Positions 1-24,045 of a DNA stretch of 32,000 nt are shown here, one piece after another. The DNA is taken from the NCBI GenBank assembly GCA_965112635.1, contig OZ218778.1, positions 730,258 through 762,257 on the forward strand, given 5' to 3'. Numbering within the stretch: the stretch's first letter is position 1; each line of letters starts with the position of its first letter. The notes under the pieces are model-generated. The model saw only the letters and a program-made list of their open reading frames with translations. It ran no database searches and was not told the DNA's origin. Source of the stretch: an uncultured bacterium. GTDB taxonomy: Bacteria; Oederibacteriota; Oederibacteriia; Oederibacteriales; Oederibacteriaceae. The translations under genes were made by a program, and so were the position numbers.

Positions 1-1703
1 CCGCGATGTATAAAAAGTTAAAGATGGCGCTGTATTGGTCCTTGATCAGCGGCTGCCAGTCCAGGAAAAGCCAGGTGCCCGGCACCGGCCCCAGCAATTT
101 TTCCTCTCCGGCGTGCCGGCAGAACCAGTCCAAACACTTTTCCAGGGCCGGAAATACTTCTTCGATCACGTCTTTTTTGCCGGTAAAAAGGAAGTAATAC
201 TGCAGGGACATGACCCAGATGAGGTTGAAATCCGGCAGGATGCAGTCATAGGCCTGGCTGGGAAAAACGCCGAACAAGAGCCCCTCGGGCGTCTGGGACT
301 GGGCTGCCTGGCGGATGCCCCGCCGCAATAAATCAAATTTGCCGAAGGCGTAGGCCGTGACCCAGGCCTGGACCGTGGCGTCGCCCCACCACTGGCCCTG
401 TTCCCTCCACGGGCAGTCCACATAACTGTCCAGCATGCACACCCGCTGGGTATGCGCCGCCGTCTCCCATATTTTATTGAGGAGCGGGTCAGAGCAGGAA
501 AAACTGCCTCTTGCTTCCACCGGATAACTGGAGTGTGTCAAGCTCACTGAAAGGACAATAGGTTTTTTGATCCGGCGCACCGTGACCAGCATATAGCGGA
601 ACCCGCGGCTGCCAAAACCTTCCCACTCCTGCTTGCCCTGGCAACAGCGGTACCTGTCTGCCATGGCTGATCCTGCAGCTCTCCTCCGGGTCCAAGAGCA
701 CGATGGAGCCATCATGGTTCAGGTCCTCGGTGTAAAAAAGGTCCACCATTTCTCCGCCCAGGGCTTTTTGGATGGCCAGGCGGGGATGGCCCACCACTTC
801 CTTGCCAAAATCCAGCAAAAGCGCTTGGGGTTTTCGATCCTTGGCCGGTAATATCTCAAAGGTCATTGTGTTCTTGGGTCCAGCCTGGCCAAGCCGGAAA
901 GCCCCTTGTTTGGCTGGCTGCCTTTTTTCATGAAAGAGCAGTAATCCCAGGTTGTTATATTTTTCCCAGTTCTTGACTGTGGTCACGCTCCACTGGGACA
1001 GCACCTGGCTGGGAGCCATCTCCTTTTCTTCTAAAAAGGAAATGCCCCGTGGCTCCAGGCCCGGCCAGGGCATGCGCGGCACAGGCCCGCTGCGGGGCGA
1101 TTCGGTCCATTTCGAATCGTCAAAACCCGGCAGCATCCAATTAGGATCGAGCTGGCTGGCGTCAAAATCCTCCTGAAAACCCTGCTGGAATGAGATGCGG
1201 TCCGCCATCCGGTTCCACGCCCTGATGACATTGGACTTAGGGAAACGGGCCGGGATAAGGCCCGGGCACCAGCCCGCCTCAATAGTGCGCCAGGTGGAGT
1301 CGGTAGAGAGGGGCACGGTTTTGCCCGGCCCCAGCTCAGCTTCGCCGTCCAGCAAAAACCCTTCCCAGCCGGTCTCGATGTGGTGGAACATGGTGATTCC
1401 AAAATGATGCACCACGGCTGCCAGCACATTGCGGCCTGCCCGTAAAAACGGGGCGATATCCAGTTCGTCATAGGGCAGGCTGAAGGGATAACCCCGGGCC
1501 GGGCCGCGGCACACGAATTTGCCGTTGACGAACAGTTTATACCGGCTGTCCGCCGTCACCCTGATCCGGGCATGCCGGGGTTTGGAGGCCAGGGTCAGTT
1601 CTTTGCGGTATATCCTCCAGTAGTTCCACGGTTCTCCGAGATGGTCGTCCGCCAGCCAAGTGCACAGCCATTGCCCGGTCCATTTTTTCTGGGTCCCCAT
1701 CAT
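1..1703 (-). pseudogene. GH78-like alpha-L-rhamnosidase, interrupted by an apparent frameshift near 662; C-terminus runs off the window
   Basis: ORF 489-1736(-) reads as a rhamnosidase N-terminal region. The likely true start is the ATG at 1703, preceded by GGAGGAA. From about 664 downward another minus frame continues the domain: ADRYRCCQGKQEWEGFGSRGFRYM...LLNKIWETAAHTQRVCMLDSYVDCPWREQGQWWGDATVQAWVTAYAFG..., a typical GH78 catalytic-region sequence, open to the window start. Confidence 0.75.
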
Positions 1704-1710
1704 TTCCTCC

Positions 1711-2685
1711 TTAATTCTTCCAGGAATACTTGCCATACTCTTGCACGGCCTGTTCCATGGCCGCCAGATGTTCGGGCGGGGTCGGCATCCCCTGATCAGG
1801 GCAGCAAAAATATCCGCCCTCCGCTCCCAGCAGTTTTATCTTTTCTTTAACATCCTGTTTGATCCGCTCTACCGGCCCTTCTATGAGCAGGGCCGTACTG
1901 ATTCCTCCCTCAAAGGCGATACGCTTGCCTCCGCTGGCGCGGAGTTTACCCAGGTCGTTGGCCGTGGCCTGGATGGGATTGAGGATATCCACGCCCAATT
2001 CCATAAAGATCGGCAGCATGGCCTCCACGTTGCCGCAGGAATGGAAATGCACCAAAACATTGTTCTTTTTGTAAAGTTCGAACAGCCTGCGGTATTCCTG
2101 CACCAGAAAATTTTTTACAATGGCCGGCCCGAGCAAGGGCCCGTTCTGCGTGCCCAGGTCGTCGCTCATGCCCACCATTTCACAGCCGAGCTTGAGGTAA
2201 TGCTTGGCCATGCCCAGCTGGAAATCCATGATGCGGTGCAGTACCTCCCTGGCAAACTCCGGCTCAGCGTAAAAATATGTCATCATGTTCTCCATGCCCA
2301 CGAGCAAATAGGATTTTTCCCACAAAGTATCGCGGTTGGACCCGCAGATAAAGGCATCCTCGGATCTTGGGGTTTCGGCGGCCATTTTGTAGATCTTCCC
2401 GCACAGGCGTTCATCGTTGGGGTCTGGCCATTGGTAGGTTTTAAGGGCGTTCATATTGGCTAATGGGTTGACGCGGGGAAAACCCATGACCTCGGGCTGT
2501 TCTTTGTGCCATTCCACGCCCCAGATATCGGTCCATTTGGACCCCACCGGGCAGTCGTGCCCGCCGCCGTCATAACCCTCGTGGTTGCAGCCCTGGTAAC
2601 ATAAAGTTTGACGGGGCACATAACTCATCACCCGTTCGGGCCGGTCAAAACGGATTATTCGGAGCGCGTTCTCTTTGTCAGTCAT
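1711..2685 (-). CDS. Uroporphyrinogen decarboxylase (URO-D)-family / MtaA-CmuA-like methyltransferase
   Basis: 324 aa. HFHSCGNVEAMLPIFMELGVDILNPIQ and GGYFCCPDQGMPTPPEH match the URO-D/MtaA fold with HxHxCG and C-rich metal-ligand motifs. Confidence 0.8.
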   Translation of the reverse strand: MTDKENALRIIRFDRPERVMSYVPRQTLCYQGCNHEGYDGGGHDCPVGSKWTDIWGVEWHKEQPEVMGFPRVNPLANMNALKTYQWPDPNDERLCGKIYKMAAETPRSEDAFICGSNRDTLWEKSYLLVGMENMMTYFYAEPEFAREVLHRIMDFQLGMAKHYLKLGCEMVGMSDDLGTQNGPLLGPAIVKNFLVQEYRRLFELYKKNNVLVHFHSCGNVEAMLPIFMELGVDILNPIQATANDLGKLRASGGKRIAFEGGISTALLIEGPVERIKQDVKEKIKLLGAEGGYFCCPDQGMPTPPEHLAAMEQAVQEYGKYSWKN

Positions 2686-2807
2686 TGGCCTTTCCTCAAC
2701 TGGAAACTATACGGAAAATCATATCACGTCCGGGTTTTTGTGGAATAGACATCCACGTAGGGATTATAATAGGAAAGTTGTTCAAAAAAAGAGGAGGATA
2801 AAACTGT

Positions 2808-3851
2808 ATGAGCCAGACGCCCCGTGAAGTCTTTAAGCGTGCCATCACTTTCCAAAACCCTGACCGCATCCCCCGCGACCTCTGGACCCTTGGTTGGGCT
2901 ACCAGCCGCTTCCCGGCGGAAACCGAGGAGCTTCTGCGGCGTTTTCCACCGGACCTGGTCTCCGCGCCAGCCCCCTATCGTCCTTCTTCCTGTGCCAGAG
3001 GCAGCATCTACGACGCCGGCAGCGCGGTAGATGATTGGGGCTGCGTTTTTGAAAACCTGATGCCCGGCGTGCATGGAGAAGTGCGCAATCCTATCATCAA
3101 AACTCTCGATGACTGGAAATCCGTAAAACCGCCCTATGAGACTTTGCCTGAAAAAAACAGTTCGGCCCGCGACACAGTCAACCGCTTCTGCGGAAACGCG
3201 GATAAATTCGTCAGGCAGCCCACCAGCCCGCGTCCGTGGGAGCGCTACCAGTTCCTCCGCAGTACCGTGGAAGCCATGATGGACGTAGCGCTTATGGAAC
3301 CAGAGTTCCACTCCCTTCTACGTACCATCCATGAATTTTTCCTGAAAGAAATGGAGTTCTGGGCCTCGACCGACGTGGACGCGCTGTTTTTCATGGATGA
3401 CTGGGGTTCGCAGGAGCATCTGCTTATCCATCCTGAGTCCTGGCGCAAAGTTTTCAAGCCCCTTTACAAGGACTACTGCGACATCGCTCACGCGGCCGGT
3501 AAACGCATCATGATGCATTCGGACGGCCAGATACTGGATATCATCCCTGACCTTATCGAGATCGGCGTGGACGTGCTCAATTCCCAGCTCTTTTGCATGG
3601 ATATCGAGGGTTTGGGCCGGATGGCCCGGGGCAAGCTCGCTTTTTGGGGCGAGATCGACCGCCAGCACATCCTCATCTCACCCGATCCTGAAGTGGGACG
3701 GCAAGCAGTCCGCAGGGTGGCTAAAAATCTGCTCACCCCGGCTGGCGGGGTCATTGCCCTGCTGGAGTTCGGCGTGGGCGCCAATCCGAAAACTGTCCTG
3801 GCTATCTATGAAGAATGGGAAAAAGTCGGGAAAGAAGTTTGTAAGCGGTAA
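2808..3851 (+). CDS. URO-D-family (MtaA/CmuA-like) protein
   Basis: 347 aa. MSQTPREVFKRAITFQNPDRIPRDLW ... IMMHSDGQILDIIPDLIEIGVDVLNSQ. GAGGAGGA RBS just upstream. Confidence 0.8.
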   Translation: MSQTPREVFKRAITFQNPDRIPRDLWTLGWATSRFPAETEELLRRFPPDLVSAPAPYRPSSCARGSIYDAGSAVDDWGCVFENLMPGVHGEVRNPIIKTLDDWKSVKPPYETLPEKNSSARDTVNRFCGNADKFVRQPTSPRPWERYQFLRSTVEAMMDVALMEPEFHSLLRTIHEFFLKEMEFWASTDVDALFFMDDWGSQEHLLIHPESWRKVFKPLYKDYCDIAHAAGKRIMMHSDGQILDIIPDLIEIGVDVLNSQLFCMDIEGLGRMARGKLAFWGEIDRQHILISPDPEVGRQAVRRVAKNLLTPAGGVIALLEFGVGANPKTVLAIYEEWEKVGKEVCKR

Positions 3852-3873
3852 TGCTTCTGGAAAAATTGCGGGT

Positions 3874-4674
3874 TTAAAACTTCCTGGTCATACCGGCCAT
3901 GAATCCGCCGGGTAAAAAATTAAAAGAGAATTGCAGGTCCTGCTCTTGGTGTCCGGTCACTATATTGCGCTTTTCTTTTTTGGCCTGTTCCGTGAAAAGG
4001 TCCTGCAGCCGGTCTGAGATGATAAATCCCAGTAAAAGGCTTCCGCCTTTCCACCAGTCATGGTTGATGAACTGTCCCACTCCCGGGATCATGGAGGAGG
4101 CGCCTATCCACAAGGCCCGGTCATAGGTGGGGTCCGAGGCCATGGCCGTATAGCCCGCGTCCATGGTGGCAAAACTTTGCAGGGTCCATTTGCAAAAACC
4201 AAATGCTTCGCTGCAGCGGTCATAAACCGTGACCGGCCCTTCTTCCTCCCGGGGGGCCACCTCTCTCAAGGTCTGCCAGTTGAGCGCGGTCAGGAAAAGC
4301 ATGCTGTCGCCCTGAAAATAGCTTTTGTTGGCCAGTTCGCCCACTCCGGGCACCACCGAACACGAACCGATCCACAGGCTGCTGCCGTAATCCCGGCCTA
4401 ACTCCTCGGACACGAGTACCGTGTCGATCATGGAATACCGCTCCAGCACCATAAAAAGCCCCTCTTGAATGGCCCGGATGGAGTCGGCTTTTTCTTCCGG
4501 GAGCGACCGGTTAAAAATCTTTTCCCTTTCTTGGTCGAGCTGGGCCTGGTTGTCCGGCTGAGTGGCATTGGCGGTTGTGGTCTCCTGGGCCTGAAGAACG
4601 GCCTGCCATCCCGTCATCATGACCAAAAGGGAAAGGATAAGAGTGGTCTTCTTTATTTTTTCTCGGAACATCAT
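3874..4674 (-). CDS. Secreted/membrane protein of unknown function with duplicated glycine/proline TM motif
   Basis: Start moved from the ORF-track 5016 to the ATG at 4674, which has a GGGAGG RBS and a signal-peptide-like MMFREKIKKTTLILSLLVMMTGWQAVLQA. Two related motifs: SSLWIGSCSVVPGVGELAN and ALWIGASSMIPGVGQFIN. Confidence 0.6.
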   Translation of the reverse strand: MMFREKIKKTTLILSLLVMMTGWQAVLQAQETTTANATQPDNQAQLDQEREKIFNRSLPEEKADSIRAIQEGLFMVLERYSMIDTVLVSEELGRDYGSSLWIGSCSVVPGVGELANKSYFQGDSMLFLTALNWQTLREVAPREEEGPVTVYDRCSEAFGFCKWTLQSFATMDAGYTAMASDPTYDRALWIGASSMIPGVGQFINHDWWKGGSLLLGFIISDRLQDLFTEQAKKEKRNIVTGHQEQDLQFSFNFLPGGFMAGMTRKF

Positions 4675-4700
4675 TCCCGCCTCCCTATGTAATGAGTGTC

Positions 4701-5978
4701 CTAAGCTTTGCGTATCCTGTCCATGCCGTGCATATAGGGCCTGAGGGCGTCGGGGATGAGGATGCTTCCGTCGCGCTGCTGGTAGTTCTCCACGATGGCG
4801 ATCCAGGTCCTGCCCACGGCCAGGCCCGAACCGTTGAGCGTGTGCACGAACTCCGGCCTGGACTGCTTGTCGCGCCTGAACCTGATGCTGGAACGGCGCG
4901 CCTGGAAATCCAGGCAGTTGCTGCACGAGGATATTTCCCGGTAGGTCTTGGACCCGGCGAGCCACACTTCGAGGTCGTAGGTCTTGGCCGAAGCGAACCC
5001 CAGGCTGCCCGAGCACAGCTGCACCACGCGGTAGGGCAGTTTCAAAAGCTGGAGCACTTCCTCAGCGTCATGGGTGAGCTTTTCCAGTTCGCCCATGGAG
5101 TCCTCGGGCCGGCAGAACTTAAAAAGTTCCACTTTGTTGAACTGGTGCTGCCGGATGAGCCCGCGGGTGTCCTTGCCGTAAGACCCGGCTTCCCTGCGGA
5201 AGCAGGGGGTGTAGGCCGTGTAGTACAGGGGCAGGCGGCCGCCGTCCAAGATCTCGCCCTTGTGCAGGGAGTTCAAAGGCACCTCGGCCGTGGGGATGAG
5301 GTAATAATCGTCATCCCGGCATTTAAAAAGTTCCTGTTCGAATTTGGGCAGCTGTCCTGACCCCTGCATGGTGTCCGGGCTCACCAGGTAGGGCGGCAAA
5401 ACCTCCCGGTAGCCGTGTTTCTGGGTGTGCAGGTCCAGCATAAAGTTGAGGATGGCCCGTTCCAGCTGGGCTCCGGCACCCTTATATAGAGGAAACCTTG
5501 CCCCGGAGATTTGGGTGGCCTTGTCGAGATCTAAAATATCCAGTTTTTCACCCAGGTCCCAGTGGGCCAGGGCTTCAAAACCCAGGTCAGGGGGGGTACC
5601 CCACCGCCTCACCTCTTTATTATCATCATCGTCCTTGCCCTGGGGCACCGAGGCGTCCGGGATATTGGGGATAAGGAGCATCATAGCCTTGAGTTCTTCC
5701 TCGACTTTGGCCAGGTCAGTTTCCAAACCCTTTATTCTTTCGCCTTGCTCCTGAGTTTGCTTGATCAGGCTAGCGGCATCCTTTTTTTCCTTTTTATAAA
5801 TGGCAATTTCCTCGGAACCTTTGTTCTTTTCCGCCTTCAAGGTCTCAACGTGCTGCAAAAGTTCCCGCCTTTTAACCTCAGCCTGCTTTAAATTGGCTAA
5901 AGACAGCTGGGTATTGCGCAAACGCAGTGATTCCTCCACAATTCCTATATTTTCCCGCACAAATTTTAGATCTAGCAT
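4701..5978 (-). CDS. serS: Seryl-tRNA synthetase
   Basis: 425 aa full length: [21 protein letters not shown]..., [78 protein letters not shown]. Confidence 0.98.
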
Positions 5979-11313: not shown

Positions 11314-11628
11314 TCATTCCTCAGTATCCTGGGTCTTGTGCTGGCTGGAAAGATGGATCAAACCTTTAAGCCCGTCAATAATTTCCAGGACTTCTTTTTG
11401 ATACTTTAACCGATACAGCACATACTGCCCCTTGCTTGTAAATCTGACTAGGTCAGCCATCCGCAGGCTCCGCAATTGATGCGAAACTGCGGGCATGGAT
11501 CGTCTGACCTTTTTAGCCAGCTCGGATGGCGCGCAGGGTTCCTTGGCTATGGCCTCCAGGATCTGAAAAGCCACAGGATTTCCCAGCACTTTGCATACTC
11601 TGGAACAACGGAATGAAGTCTCTTGCAT
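11314..11628 (-). CDS. ArsR-like winged-helix transcriptional regulator (copy 1)
   Basis: LGNPVAFQILEAIAKEPCAPSELAKKVRRSMPAVSHQLRSLRMADLVRFTSKGQYVLYRLK. ATG at 11628 has GGAGAGGAG upstream (ORF track start GTG 11643). Confidence 0.88.
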   Translation of the reverse strand: MQETSFRCSRVCKVLGNPVAFQILEAIAKEPCAPSELAKKVRRSMPAVSHQLRSLRMADLVRFTSKGQYVLYRLKYQKEVLEIIDGLKGLIHLSSQHKTQDTEE

Positions 11629-11693
11629 ATTTCTCCTCTCCACCGATCTAAATAATGGGGATCCACAAATACGGATAATATCCTATTTTCGCA

Positions 11694-11855: not shown

Positions 11856-12299
11856 TCATTTCAGGTGAGAGCCATATCCTTCTAGGAGATCAGGAAACTC
11901 GGTAAGGAGAAATTCTTTGGCGTTCACTATCAGGGTTTTTCCCGTTTTTTTCAGCACCAGCAGGTCAAGGTCGCCCGTGACCAGATAATCAGCCCGGCTG
12001 GCTTTGGCCAGGTCCAGGACAAAAATATCCTTGGGATCTCTCAACTTTTGATGTATGCCTGGGCTTTTAATTTCAAAGGGAACAGTATAGGAAAGTATAT
12101 CTCCCAAAACCTTGTCCAATTCACTGTCTGAGAGCCCGAACTTCTTTCCCTGCAGAGTATGGGCCAGCTCTTTCAGTACCTCAGGAGAACAAACCAGCTC
12201 AATGAGCTCATGCCGGGCCAGTCCCAAAAACAGGCGGTTGACGCCCGGCCAGAAAGTGCCTGAAATGTAAACGTTGGTATCCGCAACCACTCTTACCAC
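11856..12299 (-). CDS. PIN-domain toxin-like nuclease
   Basis: 147 aa (GTG start) MVRVVADTNVYISGTFWP...LRDPKDIFVLDLAKASRADYLVTGDLDLL matches the PIN-family toxin pattern. Confidence 0.88.
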   Translation of the reverse strand: MVRVVADTNVYISGTFWPGVNRLFLGLARHELIELVCSPEVLKELAHTLQGKKFGLSDSELDKVLGDILSYTVPFEIKSPGIHQKLRDPKDIFVLDLAKASRADYLVTGDLDLLVLKKTGKTLIVNAKEFLLTEFPDLLEGYGSHLK

Positions 12300-12301
12300 T
12301 G

Positions 12302-12559
12302 CTACCGGCTCTCTTTGACCAGGCGGACAATGTCAGCTTCTTTTAAGTGAGCAAACCCTTTCTTTTTGGCCAGCGTTTCGGCCCATTGATAAAGATTCTT
12401 TGAACTTGGTTTGGAAACAACCCCTTTATTTTTTAGATAAAGCTCCAGGGATTCTTCAATAACCCCGCCGATGGTCTTATCTTCCTGCAGGGCTATCCTT
12501 TTGGTCATTTTTAGTAACTCCGGGTCCAGCCTCAGCGTGGTCTTCATGGATGTGATCAT
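12302..12559 (-). CDS. Ribbon-helix-helix-type antitoxin-like protein
   Basis: Start moved to ATG 12559 (GGAGGGACCT upstream): MITSMKTTLRLDPELLKMTKRIALQEDKTIGGVIEESLELYLKNKG. Ends 2 nt before the PIN GTG start. Confidence 0.78.
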   Translation of the reverse strand: MITSMKTTLRLDPELLKMTKRIALQEDKTIGGVIEESLELYLKNKGVVSKPSSKNLYQWAETLAKKKGFAHLKEADIVRLVKESR

Positions 12560-12579
12560 AGGTCCCTCCTCTCTTTGCT

Positions 12580-12603
12580 TGCCATATTGCCATATAGATG
12601 GCA
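12580..12603. promoter_or_regulatory. Putative toxin-antitoxin autoregulatory operator
   Basis: Tandem TGCCATAT (12580-12587, 12588-12595) running into the imperfect palindrome TGCCATATAGATGGCA (12588-12603), just upstream of the antitoxin start. Confidence 0.5.
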
Positions 12604-12661
12604 CGAAGTCAAGTTGGAACAAGGTTTTCGTATAACATAATGTCCAGGTTGGTAAATTGCA

Positions 12662-12706
12662 AGGCGGGGATCGCTGAACCTTCATTTTTTGCATGTCGCA
12701 GGTCAA
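12662..12706. repeat. Direct repeat copy A (45 bp)
   Basis: GGCGGGGATCGCTGAACCTTCATTTTTTGCATGTCGCAGGTCAAG; 42/45 identical to 14401-14445. Confidence 0.85.
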
Positions 12707-13865: not shown

Positions 13866-14180
13866 TTATTCCTCAGTATCCTGGGTCTTGTGCTGGCTGG
13901 TCAGATGAACCAAACCCTCCAGCCCGTCTATGATCTCCAGAATTTCCTTGGGGTATTTAATCCTGTAAAGAACATATTTATTTTTTGTCGTATATCGAAC
14001 TAAATCTGCCAAACGCAAGCCTTTCAACTGATGTGAAATGGCCGATATGGTTCTTTTGAACCTTTTGCTCAACTCAGATGGGGTGCACGGTTCCTTAGCA
14101 ATAGCCTCAAGAATTTGAAAAGTCAAAGGATTGCCCAATACCCGGCATAGCCTGGAACAACGATATGCTGTTTCTTTCAT
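13866..14180 (-). CDS. ArsR-like winged-helix transcriptional regulator (copy 2)
   Basis: LGNPLTFQILEAIAKEPCTPSELSKRFKRTISAISHQLKGLRLADLVRYTTKNKYVLYRIK. Paralog of 11314-11628; both end HKTQDTEE. ATG at 14180 has GGAGAGGAG upstream. Confidence 0.88.
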   Translation of the reverse strand: MKETAYRCSRLCRVLGNPLTFQILEAIAKEPCTPSELSKRFKRTISAISHQLKGLRLADLVRYTTKNKYVLYRIKYPKEILEIIDGLEGLVHLTSQHKTQDTEE

Positions 14181-14238
14181 ATTTTCTCCTCTCCACACAA
14201 GCCATAAGATACAAACCCCACAATCCCTTATTCTACCT

Positions 14239-14623: not shown

Positions 14624-15412
14624 CTATTCCCTATCCTTCCTAACCTGCATAACATAGTGAATATTGAACTTTTTGAAAACATCGGTTTTCTCAATTCCAT
14701 CCGTTGTCCAGGTGTCCGGTAAAAAATTTGTTACGCCAAGTTTTGAGATTAAATATTCTCTTATTTTATTTTTGTAAAGCGACCCCTTCTTTTTTCCTTC
14801 CATAGGTTCTATTGGAAACAGATTATTTAAAATACAGCCCTGAAGCAAATCACAAACCCCCATTAATTCATACCCTTCAGCGCCAGATACAACATCTTGA
14901 ATATGGCGAATCTTAGGAAGTTTTGAATCCAGCGAGTAACCGGCCTCTATAGTGCTGAAATTACGCTTCAATACCTCCATAAAGGTTATCGGTTCACAGC
15001 GTGTCATTTTATCCAAAAAAAGGATCGCATTCGACATATGATCAAGATTTCTTTTAAGCAGTTCATCGGCCAGTGACCGATAGGCTCGTTCTCGTTTTAT
15101 CTTCGCTGGTTCATCTGGACGACCGTATATCTCCAGATCAAAGCTATTGTCTGTTTTTATAGCAATGCAACTAAAATGACTGTCGCTCAGCATGAAAGCA
15201 TCGATCGCTTCCTTATAAACCCTGAACGCTTTGGAATAATTACAGCGAGTATATTTAATTTCCTTGAAACTGCCATCAGGTAGAACATATGCATTGCGGG
15301 CCAATACTCCCTTTATTTGTTTGTGAAATTTATGATGCGTGGGATTAAACAAAGCCCCAAGAAGGAGCCACGTATGATTATGATCGTATGTTTCGTCTAA
15401 ATATATAATCAT
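14624..15412 (-). CDS. DUF3800-like protein (RNase H-like fold family)
   Basis: 262 aa; N-terminal MIIYLDETYDHNH...LLGALF, internal AILFLDKMTR, C-terminal GVCDLLQGCILNN, in the style of the DUF3800 acidic motifs. Confidence 0.65.
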   Translation of the reverse strand: MIIYLDETYDHNHTWLLLGALFNPTHHKFHKQIKGVLARNAYVLPDGSFKEIKYTRCNYSKAFRVYKEAIDAFMLSDSHFSCIAIKTDNSFDLEIYGRPDEPAKIKRERAYRSLADELLKRNLDHMSNAILFLDKMTRCEPITFMEVLKRNFSTIEAGYSLDSKLPKIRHIQDVVSGAEGYELMGVCDLLQGCILNNLFPIEPMEGKKKGSLYKNKIREYLISKLGVTNFLPDTWTTDGIEKTDVFKKFNIHYVMQVRKDRE

Positions 15413-15540: not shown

Positions 15541-17517
15541 TTATATTATTGCAAAACCAACATCTTTTAAATATTCAAAAGTCGGATCATAATAGTCTCG
15601 CTTACGCGTTTTATCCTCTGTGTCTCCCTGCGGTACTACCATCACCATACCTTGCCGAGCACGGGTTAACAAAACACGATATGCATTTTTCAAATAGTTT
15701 TGCCTTTCTTTCTTTTTAATATGATTCCAGCTCTCACCGCAAAAGGACCAATGCTCCCAACCTTTTTTTGAATATCTAAAATCAGCATCCCAGGCTACAC
15801 ATGACCAATCAAGCTCAAGCCCCTGGACTGCGAATTCAGTCGCAACATCTTCTAAATAATATGACGAGCGCACATCCTCCTTGCCATCAAGAAACCAATG
15901 AATCGGATCCATAGGAGTTTTCACATCTAGAGCATGAGGTTTTAACCGCTCAGCTTGAGAAGAAACCACAATGCCATATCGTTCTGAACCGCGGGCTTGG
16001 CTTCTTAACCATTTCTTTGCTTTAGTAAGATCCCGAGTAAGGACTATCGGATATTTTTCTTTTACATTGGCCAATGTTTTTCGTGCTTCATCAACATTAA
16101 GGTCTAATAGTTGCTTCACAAATAGCGAAACATTCTCCGCACGGAACGAACGCATAGAGACACCTAGATGTAATTCATTTTTGTAGGTAACATTTTCTCT
16201 AAGTTCAATTTTTTTCAAAACCTCACCAGCACCATATTCGCTATCTGTGAGCCGCGAGGAAATATAAATATCCCAATTGGGATATAAATGATTTAATGAT
16301 TCTATCCATTCGCTAATCCCAGCCTCGCCGGTGTTTATTTCCTGCCCTCCCCCCACAAGGCAAACAACAACGGCCCAATCCGTATGGCGATCTAAACAAG
16401 AAATTAAAAAATCCGGTTCCGATCGATTAAAATTAGCTACATGCTTTCTGCGGGTCATAAAATTGGTGGTTTGTTCCCTATTCCAAGCTCGTTGGGCCTC
16501 ATCAAACAATGCAACGTGTTCAATTGGTGGTTTTTTTGAATCAATCAGACATTCATCACGAAAATTATGAACATTCTGGATAAACATCTTAACCCCAGAC
16601 ATAACTTCGCCTTTTTTTACTTTGATCCCTTGCTCTTTCTCATGACGCACTTTATCTCTTGCAAGGGCCTCGCGTAGCACAGCAACAAGAGGCCCATTGC
16701 CAGATAAAAATACACTGTAAAGGTCATTCGATTTATCTATGTGCTGAGTAGCAATATTTAGACCAACCAAAGTTTTACCCGCACCAGGCACACCAGTGAC
16801 GAAACAGATAGATTTGCGCGAATTTTGTTTAGATAAACTAATGATTTTTGAAATAGCATCAGAGGTTTGACTCAGATTGATAGCGCTGGCATCCCTTCGA
16901 GAAATATCATGTACTGAATGGCCGTTATAAAGGGCCATAGCTGCCTCAATAATAGTCGGGGTGGGACAATAGCGTCCTTGTTCCCACTGACTTTGATTAA
17001 TGGCAATACCTTCTGTAAAGAGCAATACATTCTTTATCACTTGGCCAAGCAATGCCACAGTGCTTCTAATAGGAAAAAGAAGTTTGTCATTCTGCGGTGT
17101 CATTGCCACAACAGGAACGGCATGGTGAGCATTGGTAGCTACAAGGACTGGAGCAACAAATTGCTCATGACTCGATTCGTGGAAGTTTTTAAGGTCCAGA
17201 GCATAGTCACAGACCTGATCTAAAGCACCAGAATTAAATTCCTTTTCACCAATTTTAAATTCAAGCACAAAAATCGTAGAGCCTATTAGCAGCACCACAT
17301 CAATTCGCTTGCCCATACGAGGTATTGAATATTCAAAATAAATCGATCCCTGATTACCAATAAGGGCGTTTTGCAGAATATTGATTTCTTCTAACCATGC
17401 ATCACGTTGGCTTTGGACCAAATCAAAATCATTATTGCGTGCAAGTTGACCTAGAATTTCATCAGGATTTGTTTTAAGGAAAATAGCTATTGAACTAGAA
17501 TAATATTCTCGTTTCAT
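15541..17517 (-). CDS. DUF2075-type SF1-like ATPase/helicase with N-terminal PD-(D/E)XK-like region
   Basis: 658 aa; N-term [20 protein letters not shown] (D...ExK), Walker [14 protein letters not shown], Walker B-like [14 protein letters not shown]-terminal [17 protein letters not shown]. Confidence 0.85.
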
Positions 17518-17545
17518 AGATTCCTTTTTATATCATCGTCAGGGT

Positions 17546-18502
17546 TTACCTTTTAAATCTTTCACTTGAATGCCATTCCAAAAGCTCTTTGTTTGGGCGG
17601 TAATTTTCTTGAACTGGAAGTCTAATCTTCTTGTGATCATAGGAAAAATAATACTCCCCGTTATGAAACTCTTCTCTAAGTTTATTACTAACTCTAATCT
17701 CGTAATCCGGAGTGACTGTGACATATCCCTGGTCAAAGAGAGAATGAAAATCCGAACGTAGACAGAGTCCATTATCAAGCCTATGATCTCCCTCTCTAGC
17801 AACTGGTCGGATATGGGCTGCTTCCAGGACAGGTACTACCTTTTCTGCTGTCATGGCGCATTTTCTATCATATAAATCTAAGATCATGACTCTGAAGGTT
17901 CCTTGTCCCAATCGCATTTTTACTAATCGGGGATCGCCATAAATTTTACCTGTAATCTCATGTATTTCTGGTTGTTTAATATCTATCGTCTCTGCTGCTA
18001 TGAGTTGTTTTTTATTATTAAGAGAACCTTTTATTCTCATCCAAATCTCCCGCATCGGAGAACTCTCTGAATCATACGTCTTGCCCTGTACAATATTTAA
18101 AGAAAAATCCTTAGGAACCGGAATCCAGTCTTTTTGTTCGAGATAAAATAGATCTCCTAAAATAATACATCCTATTGAGTAATCCTCCCTAGGATTTTCA
18201 TTAACTCTGCGGTATTTAGCTAATCGGTGTCTCATATCTTCTAGAGTAGCTACTCCGTTTTTTTCCTCAAATGCATTCCAGGCGATACTGATTGGTAACA
18301 ATGAGGAATGACGAAAAAAACCTCCCCCTACGATAAAATTATTAGGGGCATGAAGTTTAAAAAGAAAGGGTTCCCCAACTTGGAGAGTATGAAATTGCCT
18401 GTTTCCACCCGGTTGCCAAAAATTTACCTCGTCAATGTCTTGGCGTTGGCTAAGAAAATCAAACCAATCTTTATCAGTGATCCCAACATAAATATTCAAC
18501 AT
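17546..18502 (-). CDS. HNH endonuclease (putative restriction-type) with N-terminal PUA/EVE-like region
   Basis: 318 aa; C-term VPVLEAAHIRPVAREGDHRLDNGLCLRSDFHSLFDQGYVTV (HNH core). N-term YVGITDKDWFDFLSQ...GEPFLFKLHAPNNFIVGGGFF looks like a PUA-superfamily reader domain (inference). Confidence 0.85.
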   Translation of the reverse strand: MLNIYVGITDKDWFDFLSQRQDIDEVNFWQPGGNRQFHTLQVGEPFLFKLHAPNNFIVGGGFFRHSSLLPISIAWNAFEEKNGVATLEDMRHRLAKYRRVNENPREDYSIGCIILGDLFYLEQKDWIPVPKDFSLNIVQGKTYDSESSPMREIWMRIKGSLNNKKQLIAAETIDIKQPEIHEITGKIYGDPRLVKMRLGQGTFRVMILDLYDRKCAMTAEKVVPVLEAAHIRPVAREGDHRLDNGLCLRSDFHSLFDQGYVTVTPDYEIRVSNKLREEFHNGEYYFSYDHKKIRLPVQENYRPNKELLEWHSSERFKR

Positions 18503-18532
18503 CCACTCCCATATTTATCAACTTAAAACTAG

Positions 18533-20914
18533 CTATAAAATTGCAATGAATTCGCCCAGAATCTGGATGTCGTTTTCATTCTCGGGTTTGAGTTTTATAG
18601 GTTGATACTGCACATTTAATGGTAAAAGTGTTATTTCTTCGTGCTTCCAAGTCTCATCACTGCTGACAGTCTTTTTCGATGAATATAATTTAACTGTATA
18701 TGACCCGCCTGTGTCAGGGTCTGCCGGGCCGCGATACTGGGCTAAAACTATTTTACCCTGCCGCGAACCCTCTGGGTTGGCTCTGAAAACGCAATAGTCC
18801 CCATCCTTTATCTTCGGCTCCATGGACCTGCCTACCACCTGCGCCACGAACATTCTTTCATTCAACCTCCCCAAGCCCTTTGCCTCTACCCAGCCCTCAG
18901 GCTCGACTGCTTCGCCTTTCCCAAAATATCCGGCAGCCGCCTTAAGGGAATAAACAGGAAGTAAGGTTTTGAAAGCCTCATTCCCCGCTGTTTTCCTGAA
19001 TAAGGGAACAACCTTTTCCTGGACCTGCGCCTGGGATATTTCCATCCGGGACCTGAAGAAATTCTCTGTTTCTTTGTTAGTAAAATACACATAGCAACCC
19101 CGCATAGCTCGTGAAAGCAGGGTTCGATAAATATTCCTGACATAGGTTTCAAAACTTTCTTTTTTCATCTTCAATGTTCGGTCTTCAGTGGCCGAGATAT
19201 CCGCTTTTAAACTGTCCGATGGGGCATCGTAAACCAGGTCATTGCCGATAATTACCCCTATATAATCGAACTCAAATCCCTGGGCCGTATAGATGCATCC
19301 GACCTGCTTAAACCCTTCGGGCTTATACGCCCACTCATACCAGCGCACATATCCCTCTGGGGGCCTGGTGATGTCACCATGTGTTTCCCAGGGCATAGCA
19401 AAATTGCCTATCCTGACATCGTTTACCAGTTGGCCGTTCCCATCCAATTTCTTACTCCAAGGCCAACAATAACCGGCTACGATCCTGGCAGAATTCGGTT
19501 TTTCTTCTTCCCTCTTTTGCAACTCCTTATACATTTCCTGTGGAGTATCAAATATCCTGAATTCAAATTTGTCATCTTTCCTTAATAATCTTTTCTCGGA
19601 CTGGTAACCCAGAACAGATTCCAACCAAAGCAGATAATCATTTGAACCCATGCAACGGAACTGTGTCACTAATTCAACCGTATCAATAGAACACCCCTGT
19701 TTTTCGGCGGTTTCCCTGATCAATTCAGACCCGCCTATTTCCTGGGACCGGACATTTTGCTTATCATCTATAAAAAACACGACGGTTTTGGCGCAACGAA
19801 TGAGTTGGTCTATCTGGGGCATATCGGTCCTGTCCTCGGCCTTAGTGAATTGGAAGTTACTTTTATTGCCTATGCGGTGGGCTTCGTCGATCAATAACAG
19901 ATCCAGCTCGTTCGACTTTATTTTGGAAGGGACAAACCGGTATAAATTAGAAAAAAGGATTTCGCTTTCCGGTCCAACAAGGTTTTTTATGCCCTCAATG
20001 AAAGGTTTTGACTTACAGCCATAAAATACTTTGTATTTGGAATGAGCTGCCTCAGCCAGTAAATTGATAGCGATAAGAGATTTTCCTGTCCCCGGGCCCC
20101 CATGAACAATGATGACCGATTTTGTTTTAGTTTTTTTCGACCGTCTTATTTTGGAAAGAATAAGATTTTTCGCTACCAATTGCTCATTTAAAAGGGAGAA
20201 AACAGCCTTGTTTTGTATAACTGCGCTGACATGGTCCAGTAATTTTTGAGAGGGCTGGATTGGGCTTTGCATAAACCTGTTGAATATTTCAAAACCATTA
20301 CCGGATGCCAGCAAATTCTTTATCTTATCAGCCAGTAATTGGGCATCGTCTTTTGAATAAAGGGGATGGTTTTCGATAATTTTTTTAAATTTGGGGGCGA
20401 ATAAACCCTCCCCCTCCTGTTTTTTATAATTATGGCAATAAGAACAGCTGAAAAGTATAAGGGGAGGTTGCTTTTCGAACTCGCTGACAAAATATTTTAA
20501 AAAATTATGGTAGCCCTCGACCTGTTGGGATGGATGGGCCACTACTTTGCTGCTGCCGCCTGTATAGGTCTCGACAAAATTGCCCTCATCATTTAATGGC
20601 TCAACAGATTGCCATTGTTTCAATTCAATCAGGACAATATTTTCCTGCCTATCAAGACCTTTCCCGAACAACAGGCAATCAATGCGGTTCTGGTTATAGG
20701 GAACCTCATACTCAATGGCTATCTGATTATCTTTTAAACCAGCCAACTCGATCAGGTCACGGACCCTGGGTAGTGAATTTTGCCAGGAATTGACCTCCGC
20801 GAATCCAGGCTGCCTGCCGATCCTCTCCTTAAAAGTTCCGATCATGATGTCTGTAAGATGGTTTTCCCTGACATCCTGGATAAACTTTTCGGTCGTATTC
20901 TGATAGATCAGCAT
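18533..20914 (-). CDS. Three-domain fusion: PD-(D/E)XK-like nuclease, DUF2075 SF1-like helicase, LexA/S24-like peptidase
   Basis: 793 aa; YNQNRIDCLLFGKGLDRQENIVLIELKQW; VIIVHGGPGTGKSLIA; LLLIDEAHRIGN; TAQGFEFDYIGVIIG; YRTLLSRAMRGCYVY; C-terminal AQVVGRSMEPKIKDGDYCVFRANP...SYTVKLYSSKK (Ser and candidate Lys of an S24 dyad). Confidence 0.85.
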   Translation of the reverse strand: MLIYQNTTEKFIQDVRENHLTDIMIGTFKERIGRQPGFAEVNSWQNSLPRVRDLIELAGLKDNQIAIEYEVPYNQNRIDCLLFGKGLDRQENIVLIELKQWQSVEPLNDEGNFVETYTGGSSKVVAHPSQQVEGYHNFLKYFVSEFEKQPPLILFSCSYCHNYKKQEGEGLFAPKFKKIIENHPLYSKDDAQLLADKIKNLLASGNGFEIFNRFMQSPIQPSQKLLDHVSAVIQNKAVFSLLNEQLVAKNLILSKIRRSKKTKTKSVIIVHGGPGTGKSLIAINLLAEAAHSKYKVFYGCKSKPFIEGIKNLVGPESEILFSNLYRFVPSKIKSNELDLLLIDEAHRIGNKSNFQFTKAEDRTDMPQIDQLIRCAKTVVFFIDDKQNVRSQEIGGSELIRETAEKQGCSIDTVELVTQFRCMGSNDYLLWLESVLGYQSEKRLLRKDDKFEFRIFDTPQEMYKELQKREEEKPNSARIVAGYCWPWSKKLDGNGQLVNDVRIGNFAMPWETHGDITRPPEGYVRWYEWAYKPEGFKQVGCIYTAQGFEFDYIGVIIGNDLVYDAPSDSLKADISATEDRTLKMKKESFETYVRNIYRTLLSRAMRGCYVYFTNKETENFFRSRMEISQAQVQEKVVPLFRKTAGNEAFKTLLPVYSLKAAAGYFGKGEAVEPEGWVEAKGLGRLNERMFVAQVVGRSMEPKIKDGDYCVFRANPEGSRQGKIVLAQYRGPADPDTGGSYTVKLYSSKKTVSSDETWKHEEITLLPLNVQYQPIKLKPENENDIQILGEFIAIL

Positions 20915-20923
20915 TAAAGGCCC

Positions 20924-21280
20924 CTAAAGATCGGTATATTTTTTAGCGCTACCTTTGGCGAGTTTGACCGGATACTTGCGGGCGTTTTTCTTGATCTTGT
21001 CATGGGCACAGCGGATGGGGTCAACGCCCAGCATATCGCAAAGTTCCGTGAGATAGACCAATACATCGCCTATCTCATCTTTGACTTTTTTGAGGTCGGC
21101 TTTAGAAAGGTTTTTGCTTTGGTTCTCGGTCAGCCATTGAAAATGCTCCATAAGTTCTGAGGTCTCTACTGCAAGCGCCATAGAAAGGTTTTTAGGTGAA
21201 TGGTACTGTTCCCAATCACGGTCTTTTACAAATTTCTTTAATTTTCTGGAAATTTTTCTTAACCCACCTTGATTTCCCAT
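20924..21280 (-). CDS. MazG-like nucleotide pyrophosphohydrolase
   Basis: ATG 21280 with GGAG upstream (ORF track start TTG 21286). MALAVETSELMEHFQWLTE...KDEIGDVLVYLTELCDMLGV: ExxE...ExxD metal-binding pattern. Confidence 0.87.
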   Translation of the reverse strand: MGNQGGLRKISRKLKKFVKDRDWEQYHSPKNLSMALAVETSELMEHFQWLTENQSKNLSKADLKKVKDEIGDVLVYLTELCDMLGVDPIRCAHDKIKKNARKYPVKLAKGSAKKYTDL

Positions 21281-21286
21281 TTTCAA

Positions 21287-21874
21287 CTACTCCACCCTAA
21301 ATATTTTAAGAAAATGTGACCTTGGTAACTCTGACTCATAGGACAGCCCGATATTGCACTTATCAAAATAACCGTCGCCCTCAGTCCATATTTTAAATGT
21401 CTTGGGATATTTACTCAGATATTTCTTTGTTATACGAAGACCTCTGCCACCAACCTTTAGTCTAAATAGATCATGTCTATTTTTTGGATTATTAAAATAA
21501 TTTCTCATATATGCATCTGTAAGATAAATGAGAAATTTATTTTCAGCTGTAAAATTTAGCAATTTTGAAATATCCCAAAATATTTGGCCCGCACCTTCGG
21601 TATAACCCGAATCTCCACCCCTGTGATATTTGAATTCAATAGCTACATTGTTATTTTTGTCATTCGAACATGCGTAAAAGTCCAGTTTATCTTTTTTGAA
21701 CAATTTATTTTTGAATGGATGTTCTAGGATAATATTCTCAGGTTTGTATTTTTCTTTTTTGGTAAGCGCGTAAAAAAAAGTGTAACGAATTGAATCTTCC
21801 GAATCATTAAAATCCCTGTCTTTCTCCAACCTTTTCTTAATTAATTCTGTAAAGTAACTAAATACTGGGAGCAT
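21287..21874 (-). CDS. Small putative PD-(D/E)XK-fold nuclease-like protein
   Basis: 195 aa; KLDFYACSNDKNNNVAIEFKYHR gives a D-x(n)-ExK signature. Its stop lies inside the RBS region of the MazG-like gene. Confidence 0.5.
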   Translation of the reverse strand: MLPVFSYFTELIKKRLEKDRDFNDSEDSIRYTFFYALTKKEKYKPENIILEHPFKNKLFKKDKLDFYACSNDKNNNVAIEFKYHRGGDSGYTEGAGQIFWDISKLLNFTAENKFLIYLTDAYMRNYFNNPKNRHDLFRLKVGGRGLRITKKYLSKYPKTFKIWTEGDGYFDKCNIGLSYESELPRSHFLKIFRVE

Positions 21875-21976
21875 TACTTCCTCCTAAACAAACTCGTTTG
21901 ATAGCAATAATTTGATTCTATCCCCCCCATCCCCTCTAATCAAACCTTTCACGGCTCTTTCATTCCAACTGGTTCC

Positions 21977-22896: not shown

Positions 22897-24045
22897 TTAC
22901 CGCATTATCTTTCCCGACCAAAGTTCTTCCAGAAAAATATTCCAGGGCAGTATCCGGATGTTTCCCATCTTACGGGGTTTCGCGTCCCGTGATACCAGCA
23001 GCGCCTCTTTGACGCGGTATTCTTCCTGGAATGCTCTGAGCCCCCTGGCGTGGCGGTCGTCGGCGGTTTGGGCCGCTTTAACTTCCACCACCACTTCATG
23101 GTCCCCCAGGATAAAATCCACCTCCAGCTGTGAGGCGGTCCGCCAAAAGCACACCGGGTAATCCAAGCCGCTGTAACGGCTATGGGCCCAGATTTCCTGG
23201 AAAAGGAAGTGCTCAAAGGCCTTGCCAAAGGACTCGCCCCCCTCGGAGACTTTCCCGCGTTTCAAAAGATGGCCGGCCACCCCGACATCAAAAAAGTAGA
23301 ACTTGGGCGCCTGGATGACCCTGCGTTTGGGATTTTTCCTAAAGGAGGATATCTGGGTCGCCACCAGGGTATCCTCCAGGATCTGGAAATATTCCTTTAC
23401 CGTCGGCGGGCTGATGCCGCATTCCGTGGCGATATTTTGGTAGTTGAGGATCTCCCCATTGCTGAAGGCCGCGGCTTCCAGAAAACGGGCGAAGGCGGGG
23501 ATGTTGCGGGCCAAAGCCTCGGCGGCGATCTCTTCTTTTAGATAGTCCCCCAGGTAAGCAGCCATAAGTTTTTCGGCATCCTCGACCAGGTAATGCCGCG
23601 GCAGGAGGCCGTGGTTCAAGGCTCTGGTAAGGTCAAACCCGGGTATTTCCGCGCTGACCAGGGGGTGCAGCTCGTACCTCAAGGCCCGGCCTCCCAGCAG
23701 GTTGGCCCCGGAACGTTTCAGTTTCCGGGCGCTGGAGCCGCACAGGATAAAGGAGAGATGGTGGTTGACGATCAGCCATTGGATCTCATCCAGCAAAGCC
23801 GGGCACTTTTGGACTTCATCAATGATAATGGGGGTCCCGGGAGCCGGAAGCGCGGCCAGGATCTCCTCCCTCAAAAGAGCGGGATGCCGCGACAACCGGG
23901 CGTATTCGTCTGACAGGAGGAGATCGTAGTAGGGCGCTTGGGGGAAAAACTCCTTTAACAGCGTACTTTTCCCGGTCTGCCTGGCGCCCCAAAGAAAGGC
24001 GCTTTCGTTTTTTCGTCCCTGGAAGGTCTGCAGTCGTTTAAACAT
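22897..24045 (-). CDS. AAA-family ATPase with DUF4143-type C-terminal domain
   Basis: 382 aa; WGARQTGKSTLL, TPIIIDEVQKCPALLDEIQWLI, ILCGSSARKLKRSGANLLGGRA, CFWRTASQLEVDFILGDHEVVVEVKAA. Confidence 0.93.
   Translation of the reverse strand: MFKRLQTFQGRKNESAFLWGARQTGKSTLLKEFFPQAPYYDLLLSDEYARLSRHPALLREEILAALPAPGTPIIIDEVQKCPALLDEIQWLIVNHHLSFILCGSSARKLKRSGANLLGGRALRYELHPLVSAEIPGFDLTRALNHGLLPRHYLVEDAEKLMAAYLGDYLKEEIAAEALARNIPAFARFLEAAAFSNGEILNYQNIATECGISPPTVKEYFQILEDTLVATQISSFRKNPKRRVIQAPKFYFFDVGVAGHLLKRGKVSEGGESFGKAFEHFLFQEIWAHSRYSGLDYPVCFWRTASQLEVDFILGDHEVVVEVKAAQTADDRHARGLRAFQEEYRVKEALLVSRDAKPRKMGNIRILPWNIFLEELWSGKIMR

Follow-up and report, generated by a model that had tools for sequence, protein, structure and literature searches.

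A MazG-like pyrophosphatase gene paired with a nuclease-helicase gene in a candidate defence island of an uncultured Oederibacteriota bacterium

Bari et al. showed experimentally that Nhi, a nuclease-helicase of Staphylococcus epidermidis (SERP2475) that works as a single gene, acts in defence (bioRxiv 10.1101/776245), and in 2022 Millman et al. did so for the "Nhi-like" proteins, which have the same domain layout (Millman et al., 2022; 10.1101/2022.05.11.491447). A protein of comparable architecture, here labelled g3, is encoded in a stretch of 32,000 nucleotides (nt) of DNA from an uncultured bacterium of the Oederibacteriota (contig OZ218778.1, positions 730,258 to 762,257), which we call the window and to which all coordinates below refer unless another record is named. 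It belongs to a block of five open reading frames (ORFs) on the minus strand, g1 to g5, at 15541-21874. Directly upstream of g3 lies g2, the gene of a MazG-like nucleotide pyrophosphatase. The two very probably form a functional unit, and this unit is likely to serve in defence.

Other proteins of the block also have described relatives. In 2019 Lutz et al. reported that a PUA/HNH architecture gives cleavage dependent on 5-methylcytosine or 5-hydroxymethylcytosine (5mC/5hmC) or on N6-methyladenine (6mA), typically without a nearby methylase, and they already noted DUF2075 NTPases beside some modification-dependent enzymes (PMC6765204). Jablonska et al. described MazG genes as neighbours of another HNH group (PMC5714182). 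Mammalian dCTP pyrophosphatase 1 (DCTPP1, also called RS21-C6), the nearest characterised relative of g2, sets the level of 5-methyl-deoxycytidine triphosphate (5-methyl-dCTP) and thereby DNA methylation (PMC4491611). The pairing of a MazG-like with a DUF2075 gene, or a MazG-like host gene as a partner in defence, is not described in the literature searched (subscription journals lay outside its scope), and a 2025 preprint on modularity networks mentions neither this pairing nor the PADLOC candidate PDC-S41, to which we return below. All defence models used here are those of PADLOC v2.0.0, in which the g2-g3 pair has no system-level match; because the pair is not recognised there, current annotation pipelines may miss it. 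It is widespread and, as far as this search shows, undescribed.

A first-pass annotation of the window had proposed that the five genes make up one defence operon. Its gene models on one strand, its gaps of 9, 30 and 28 nt and its domain assignments (a MazG-like pyrophosphohydrolase, two DUF2075 ATPases, an S24 domain, an HNH nuclease and three PD-(D/E)XK regions) were all borne out by the profile searches and family alignments described below, gene by gene. Its single five-gene system was not.

The g2-g3 pair

Relatives of the block were collected as 80 loci with g3 homologues from species-representative genomes and 80 metagenome loci with g5 homologues, and all 160 were searched with every protein of the window. 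Sixty-eight g3 loci were usable, having a complete g3 N-terminus and at least 420 nt of DNA upstream. A MazG-like gene lies directly upstream of g3 and on the same strand in 55 of these (81%), mostly with a gap of 0-14 nt, and the pairing is similarly frequent for g3 forms with (20/24) and without (35/44) an S24 domain. The g3 loci are spread over Bacteroidota, Planctomycetota, Omnitrophota, Patescibacteria, Proteobacteria, Nitrospirota and Woesearchaeota. The distance matrices of the MazG-like proteins and their g3 partners correlate (Mantel r = 0.36, a value reached in 0 of 2000 permutations), so that the neighbourhood of the MazG-like and the 793-amino-acid (aa) gene, which the first-pass annotation had singled out, is conserved in sequences that diverge together. 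Approached from the side of g2, the picture is the same: a DUF2075 gene follows in all three (3/3) of the closest g2 homologues on long contigs, and such a pair is also found on a Priestia plasmid. The 13 g3 loci without a MazG-like gene have no alternative small pyrophosphatase upstream.

The pair occurs among toxin-antitoxin, Fic, AbiE and restriction genes. The immediate neighbours in related loci include SoFic, PDC-S02, PDC-S04, PDC-S13, PDC-S24, AbiEii, HipA, RadC, Bro-N and ResIII.

The g2 gene can be read from a TTG (20924-21286, 120 aa), but public gene calls and the sequence prefer the ATG at 21280 (20924-21280, 118 aa), 6 nt of DNA then separating it from the stop codon of g1. The product matches the MazG-like family PF12643 with 59.1 bits (cut-off 27; E = 5e-16), and among solved structures it is closest to an archaeal pyrophosphatase and to mouse and human DCTPP1/RS21-C6 (E = 1.5e-20). 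With DCTPP1/RS21-C6 it shares the all-alpha MazG-like fold family, the EXXE...EXXD metal site and the substrate motif RDWEQFHxPRNL, which in the form RDWEQ(F/Y)HxP(K/R)NL is nearly identical in the two. Among 61 g3-linked homologues, E41, E44, E47, E71, D74, W25, H29 and W51 are conserved to at least 93%, and the metal-site residues E41, E44, E71 and D74 to 97-100%. Because the catalytic residues are kept, the MazG-like partners look like active enzymes. By sequence g2 is thus a DCTPP1-like (MazG-like, all-alpha) nucleoside triphosphate pyrophosphatase, and the conservation of residues with DCTPP1 suggests a possible activity on dCTP or 5-modified dCTP. It differs from DCTPP1 in being a prokaryotic protein of 118 aa within a nuclease operon. 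No PADLOC v2.0.0 model matches g2.

The g3 gene (18533-20914, 793 aa) encodes an N-terminal PD-(D/E)XK (NERD-like) nuclease domain (aa 1-225, 20240..20914), a superfamily 1B (SF1B)-type helicase/ATPase core (DUF2075/SLFN-g3_helicase; aa 240-625, 19040..20197) and a C-terminal S24 domain, all on the minus strand like the gene itself. Sixty-six homologues all keep E68, E70, D79, E97 and K99 in the nuclease domain, D79/E97/K99 making up the PD-(D/E)XK motif. This domain aligns with the N-terminal part of PDC-S41 in PADLOC (1e-20), precomputed NERD (PF08378) matches exist for the g3 homologues P0015 and P0028, and the AlphaFold model has an alpha-beta-beta-beta-alpha-beta core with a predicted local distance difference test score (pLDDT) of about 80-95. 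The helicase core matches PF09848 (SLFN-g3_helicase/DUF2075) with 8e-84, and its Walker A (GGPGTGKS, 272-279) and Walker B (DEAH, 343-346) motifs are invariant in the homologues. A PDB search with full-length g3 as a single sequence gave zero matches; the AlphaFold model (mean pLDDT 82.6) was matched by Foldseek to RecD2 (1.6e-10), RecD, Dna2, Dda and Upf1. Between the nuclease core and the helicase, residues 156-163 (~20426-20449) form an invariant SC(A/S)YCHNY stretch in which Cys157, Cys160 and His161 are conserved, and which may be a metal site.

Like Nhi and the Nhi-like proteins, g3 therefore combines in one polypeptide a PD-(D/E)XK nuclease at the N-terminus with a downstream SF1B helicase overlapping DUF2075, and Dda, Upf1 and Dna2, reported as structural relatives of Nhi, are found for g3 as well. 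The differences are several. The PADLOC model of Nhi aligns only to residues 240-405 of g3 (1.8e-12) and 230-270 of g5 (1.9e-4) and not over the full length. Nhi acts on its own, whereas in 81% of its loci g3 is paired with a MazG-like gene, and a fusion to S24, as in g3, has not been described for Nhi. What appears to be new is the addition to a nuclease-helicase immunity of the Nhi type of a nucleotide-pyrophosphatase partner and, here, of a putative S24 switch.

The S24 domain of g3 (aa 645-793, 18536..18982) matches Peptidase_S24 with 41.7 bits (cut-off 23.3; E = 1e-10). A PDB search with this tail as a single sequence gave zero matches; LexA and UmuD structures were matched once a profile of 21 S24 sequences was used. 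In the alignment with LexA the GxSM of the family corresponds to GMSM (Ser119) and its TVK to VTVK (Lys156), which places the catalytic dyad of g3 at Ser697 (18824-18826) and Lys742 (18689-18691), both invariant across the 21 S24 domains. The putative self-cleavage site Ala661-Gly662 (18929-18934) lies within AAG, whose Ala and Gly are conserved to at least 90% in the same set, some homologues having Cys-Gly (ACG). The spacing from Gly to Ser is 35 residues in g3 and 34 in LexA, where the scissile bond is Ala84-Gly85. From its sequence the domain looks complete and of the LexA/UmuD type, and self-cleavage is predicted. The Ser-Lys dyad and the Ala-Gly site about 35 residues before the Ser are thus as in LexA, UmuD and lambda CI. 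Unlike in these, the domain forms the C-terminus of a nuclease-helicase, its partner being neither a polymerase subunit nor a repressor domain that binds DNA, and it has an insertion before the Lys strand. The g3 homologues come in two forms, of ~800 aa with and ~626 aa without S24. Because the two interleave in a neighbour-joining tree of the shared g3 core, S24 must have been gained or lost repeatedly.

Three side observations concern loci of the pair. The record of Microcystis phage Mwe-JY31 (PP438423; locus L168) contains at 1629-5863 a g3 homologue downstream of a MazG-like gene whose product has 39% identity to g2; the two are preceded by the gene of a 672-aa protein, and all three are annotated as hypothetical. 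In about seven loci (L003, L006, L012, L038, L052, L063 and L164) the gene of a ~650-690-aa protein with N-terminal TPR repeats and a zinc-protease-like HEMEH motif lies directly upstream of the MazG-like and g3 genes and may be an accessory third gene. In four others (L027, L028, L030 and L032), all from metagenome-assembled genomes of Patescibacteria and Gammaproteobacteria, an S24-less g3 is followed by the gene of a RadC/JAB-domain protein of ~230 aa, at a distance of 1 nt in three of them and of 33 nt in L032.

The separable genes g4, g5 and g1

The g4 gene (17546-18502, minus strand, 318 aa) encodes an N-terminal PUA-like (ASCH/EVE-like) reader domain (aa 1-165, 18008-18502) and an HNH nuclease domain (aa ~195-318, within 17546..18502). 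The latter matches HNH_2 (1.7e-10) and aligns to VcaM4I (6yex, 3.3e-7) and TagI (6ghs); H230, N244 and H253 do not vary among 30 homologues. The AlphaFold model is good for the N-terminal domain (pLDDT 80-93), where it matches 2kku and ZmASCH (4e-4 to 8e-4), EVE (0.04) and YTH folds, and poor for the HNH domain (pLDDT 30-50). With its PUA-like fold, its C-terminal HNH_2 and no methyltransferase found nearby, g4 resembles the TspA15I/VcaM4I, ScoA3IV and ScoA3V groups (PMC6765204; PDB 6yex), from which it differs in that its reader is nearest to ASCH-type folds, not to EVE or SRA, and has no sequence match to the characterised enzymes. It probably is a modification-dependent (Type IV) restriction endonuclease, independent of the g2-g3 pair: the PUA reader, the HNH with its H/N/H residues and the lack of a methyltransferase among the scanned ORFs of the window, which characterise Type IV PUA-HNH enzymes, are all found. 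A phosphorothioate-dependent enzyme was also considered and rejected, the NCBIfam PT-DNA_restrict match covering only the HNH part and reaching 76 bits against a cut-off of 180.

As the first-pass annotation had stated, no DNA methyltransferase domain was detected in any scanned ORF of the window; because four ORFs of >190 aa outside the block gave no Pfam match at all, this absence is not absolute. A nuclease paired with a cognate DNA methyltransferase, as in classical restriction-modification, is thus found neither in the block nor in the window.

The g4 family is very large (>7900 matches) and its members mostly stand alone. Full-length g4 relatives adjoin in about 6-8% of the loci, in varying orders. 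Genes of g4-like PUA/HNH proteins abut MazG-like genes, sometimes with a 4-nt overlap, in L105, L113, L162/L163 and a JGI contig. The Priestia plasmid has the order MrcB_N-HNH, MazG-like, DUF2075 with MutT nearby, and the JGI contig the order g4-like HNH, MazG-like, Nudix, HIT-PLD-helicase-DUF3427. This recurrence of pyrophosphatases with modification-reader nucleases suggests that sanitation of the nucleotide pool from modified dCTP may be coupled to attack on DNA. The giant HIT-PLD-helicase-DUF3427 proteins (~1200 aa) are encoded beside g4-like HNH genes both in the JGI contig and in L176 (10459-10921).

The g5 gene (15541-17517, minus strand, 658 aa) encodes a PD-(D/E)XK nuclease fused to a DUF2075 helicase. 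Its product matches the PADLOC model of PDC-S41 (PDLC05014) over residues 1-656 of 658 (7.3e-287) and PF09848/DUF2075 with 1.3e-84. In 95 homologues the nuclease residues E62, D73, E86 and K88, the Walker A residues G245-T249 and D339/E340 are conserved to at least 98%. With ~28% local identity to g3, g5 is its distant paralogue. The likeness to PDC-S41 is complete for g5 and extends in g3 to the N-terminal nuclease only, which matches the N-terminus of the same model; PDC-S41 is a single-gene candidate, whereas g3 is of another family, which is paired and has S24 in only some of its members. A published test of PDC-S41 was not found in the literature searched. The description of the locus as under-described, given in the first-pass annotation, therefore stands for g2-g3, which has no PADLOC system match, and falls for g5 and for a neighbouring DUF4143 ATPase, which is PDC-S01: g5 is an already catalogued candidate. 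With g4, a class already known gains a new member.

The g1 gene (21287-21874, minus strand, 195 aa), whose ATG is preceded by an AGGAGG ribosome-binding site, encodes a small stand-alone PD-(D/E)XK-like protein. Its match to HSDR_N_2 is weak (1.6e-4, below the Pfam cut-off), and its profile gave chance matches only against PDB and only sub-threshold PD-(D/E)XK matches against Pfam. The family of ~200-aa proteins to which it belongs has 256 cluster representatives, in which E26, D27, R30, D65, E80 and K82 are invariant, D65/E80/K82 constituting the nuclease motif. No g1 homologue was present in any of the related loci (0/160), and two that were looked up, on three short contigs, lay in unrelated contexts. 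g1 is an orphan small nuclease-like protein and an unrelated passenger, not part of a conserved module.

The association of g5 with g3 is occasional. A g5 gene directly follows g3 in 14 of the 68 g3 loci (21%), and a g3 homologue is present in 2 of the ~30 g5-centred loci with enough upstream DNA (~7%), g5 being mostly solitary. The orders observed are MazG-g3-g4-g5 (L101, a metagenome contig), g4-MazG-g5 (L105), g5-g4-MazG (L113), g5-g4 (L156, L158), HNH-HNH-MazG-DUF2075 (L162/L163) and g5-MazG-g3. Because in these neighbourhoods g1 never and g4 and g5 only occasionally accompany g3, the block is a mosaic of a conserved g2-g3 core, the separable single-gene nucleases g4 and g5 and the passenger g1, not one five-protein system. 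The independent scattering of genes that had been named beforehand as evidence against a single system is thus seen for g1, g4 and g5 and not for g2-g3.

Proposed mechanism and its alternatives

We propose, with somewhat more confidence than doubt, that the block is a horizontally acquired defence island of separable units around the g2-g3 core. In such an island g2 would probably be translationally coupled to g3. The latter would, like Nhi, load on foreign DNA or replication intermediates, unwind them and degrade them. g2 would hydrolyse nucleotides of the dCTP type and, like its mammalian relative, most plausibly the 5-modified dCTPs. Phages with modified DNA would thereby be deprived of building blocks, and the host chromosome would be kept free of modified nucleotides that are salvaged when phage DNA is degraded; once modified, the chromosome would otherwise be cut by the co-resident modification-dependent nucleases. 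Filaments of RecA on single-stranded DNA (RecA-ssDNA), arising from infection or DNA damage, would trigger self-cleavage of g3 at Ala661-Gly662 and so switch its nuclease-helicase on or off. Of the last two parts, the RecA-triggered switch is put forward tentatively and the role of g2 with modified dCTP more tentatively still. A bolder version appears rather unlikely to us, namely that the MazG-like/nuclease-DUF2075 pair is a new widespread two-gene immune family in which modified-dCTP sanitation is coupled to attack and to Type IV enzymes, and that its S24 variant is the first defence effector with a built-in LexA-like switch reading RecA-ssDNA directly.

The reading of the first-pass annotation, that all five genes are one multi-component system which works only as a whole, finds some footing in their co-orientation at distances of 6-30 nt without a convincing internal terminator and in locus L101, where the order MazG-like, g3(S24), g4, g5 is repeated. 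It is made very improbable by the absence of g1 from every related locus, by the low frequencies with which g4 adjoins and g3 and g5 meet, by the varying gene order and by the mostly stand-alone life of the g4 and g5 families. A different division of labour within the pair would make g2 the effector: g3 would sense foreign DNA or damage, and g2 would deplete dCTP or another canonical deoxynucleoside triphosphate (dNTP) and thus halt phage replication, in the manner of the dCTP deaminase and dGTPase defences. Defence by nucleotide depletion is an established strategy, and g2, tightly coupled to g3, is homologous to dCTP pyrophosphatase and retains its catalytic residues. dCTP deaminases and dGTPases are, like g2, enzymes of the dNTP pool met in a defence context, but of enzyme families unrelated to it; g2 has no PADLOC match and is always accompanied by a nuclease. 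A pure sensor would not need the nuclease residues that are invariant in g3, the same MazG-like gene is also found next to simple HNH enzymes lacking an ATPase, and g2 is a minimal protein of 118 aa with neither a regulatory domain nor a PADLOC match. We consider g2 as effector improbable.

Outside defence, the pair could be a module for DNA repair or replication stress, with a Dna2/RecD-like enzyme wired to the SOS response via S24 and a house-cleaning pyrophosphatase. The fold of g3 does resemble RecD2, RecD and Dna2, S24 is the domain type of the SOS regulators LexA and UmuD, DCTPP1 is a pool-sanitising enzyme (PMC4491611), and one locus adjoins recA-recX-alaS. Such a module would hardly be expected to show the patchy distribution of the pair and its 60-70% identity across archaea and unrelated phyla, a sign of horizontal transfer, nor to lie in a low-GC island, on plasmids and in a phage record, next to toxin-antitoxin, Fic, AbiE, restriction and PADLOC-candidate genes, nor to have in g5 a paralogue that is itself a PADLOC defence candidate; this reading is less probable again than that of g2 as effector. 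Least probable of all is an antitoxin-like g2 that, by binding, restrains a toxic g3 until infection removes it, without any nucleotide chemistry. A small upstream gene tightly coupled to a potentially toxic nuclease, and co-diverging with it, would suit such a restraint. All metal- and base-binding residues of g2 are conserved, however, which indicates that catalysis matters, ~19% of g3 homologues do without g2, and the g2 family also pairs with unrelated HNH nucleases.

Several points weigh against the defence island as we propose it. The 160 loci are the best-scoring relatives from pattern scans, and they cannot be counted as independent samples, since horizontal transfer connects many of them. 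Because ~19% of the g3 homologues have no adjoining MazG-like gene, g2 is not indispensable. The locus at recA-recX-alaS bears an S24 domain and lies directly after these genes, where a role in repair would fit too. The PADLOC matches of g3 to the Nhi and AbiO models are confined to the Walker A region, for which reason the analogy with Nhi rests on architecture and not on close homology. In some S24 domains the Ala-Gly is replaced, in a few by Ala-Thr and otherwise by different residues. The association with modification-dependent nucleases, seen in only about 6-8% of the loci, could reflect the general clustering of genes in defence islands. The first-pass annotation had suggested that base modification matters; circumstantial support comes from the PUA-like/HNH protein g4 and from MazG-like and Nudix genes beside modification-reader nucleases. 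g3 itself has no feature resembling a reader of modified bases. The defence role, the substrate of g2 and the self-cleavage of S24 are all matters that we infer.

If the pair is a true defence unit, a very widespread module, found from bacteria to DPANN archaea with 45-70% identity, joins the nuclease-helicase immunity of the Nhi and Schlafen-like type. The small "house-cleaning" pyrophosphatases that are common in defence islands would also gain a concrete role, either in shielding the host against the modification-dependent nucleases that it encodes itself or in withholding modified nucleotides from phages. The S24 fusion offers a testable link from the RecA/SOS damage signal to the activation of an immune nuclease without a separate repressor.

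The surroundings of the block

With g2 beginning at the ATG at 21280, the genes g1, g2, g3, g4 and g5 follow each other at distances of 6, 9, 30 and 28 nt. A consensus scan gave a sigma-70-like promoter match (TTGATT-17-TAGAAT, 21915..21943, minus strand) upstream of g1. Because promoter-like and terminator-like matches in the region are no more numerous than in shuffled sequence, co-transcription is read from the spacing only.

The GC content of the block is 0.36-0.46 (~0.40) as compared with 0.53-0.62 in the flanks, which agrees with the AT-rich, horizontally acquired appearance noted in the first pass. The low-GC stretch extends from ~10 to 22 kb of the window and is flanked by ordinary chromosomal genes (SerRS, RtcB, SurE, YchF). 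A check for integration signals found no tRNA gene in the window. Just upstream of the block, in DNA of higher GC outside this stretch, lies at 22897-24045 (minus strand) the gene of the DUF4143/AAA_14 ATPase that matches the PADLOC candidate PDC-S01 (2e-55). On the other side, 128 nt downstream of g5, there is a co-oriented ORF of 262 aa (14624-15412, minus strand), which has no match in Pfam, NCBIfam or PADLOC and occurs in none of the related loci.

Within the same island a PIN_3 toxin-like gene is directly preceded by a 134-aa ORF without a Pfam match (11856-12299 and 12302-12706, both on the minus strand), and the two may be a toxin-antitoxin pair. The island also contains two near-identical genes of ArsR/HTH_20-type regulators (11314-11643 and 13866-14198, minus strand; 109 and 110 aa), 2.2 kb apart, whose products both end in ...QHKTQDTEE, which suggests a duplication or a repeated cassette boundary.

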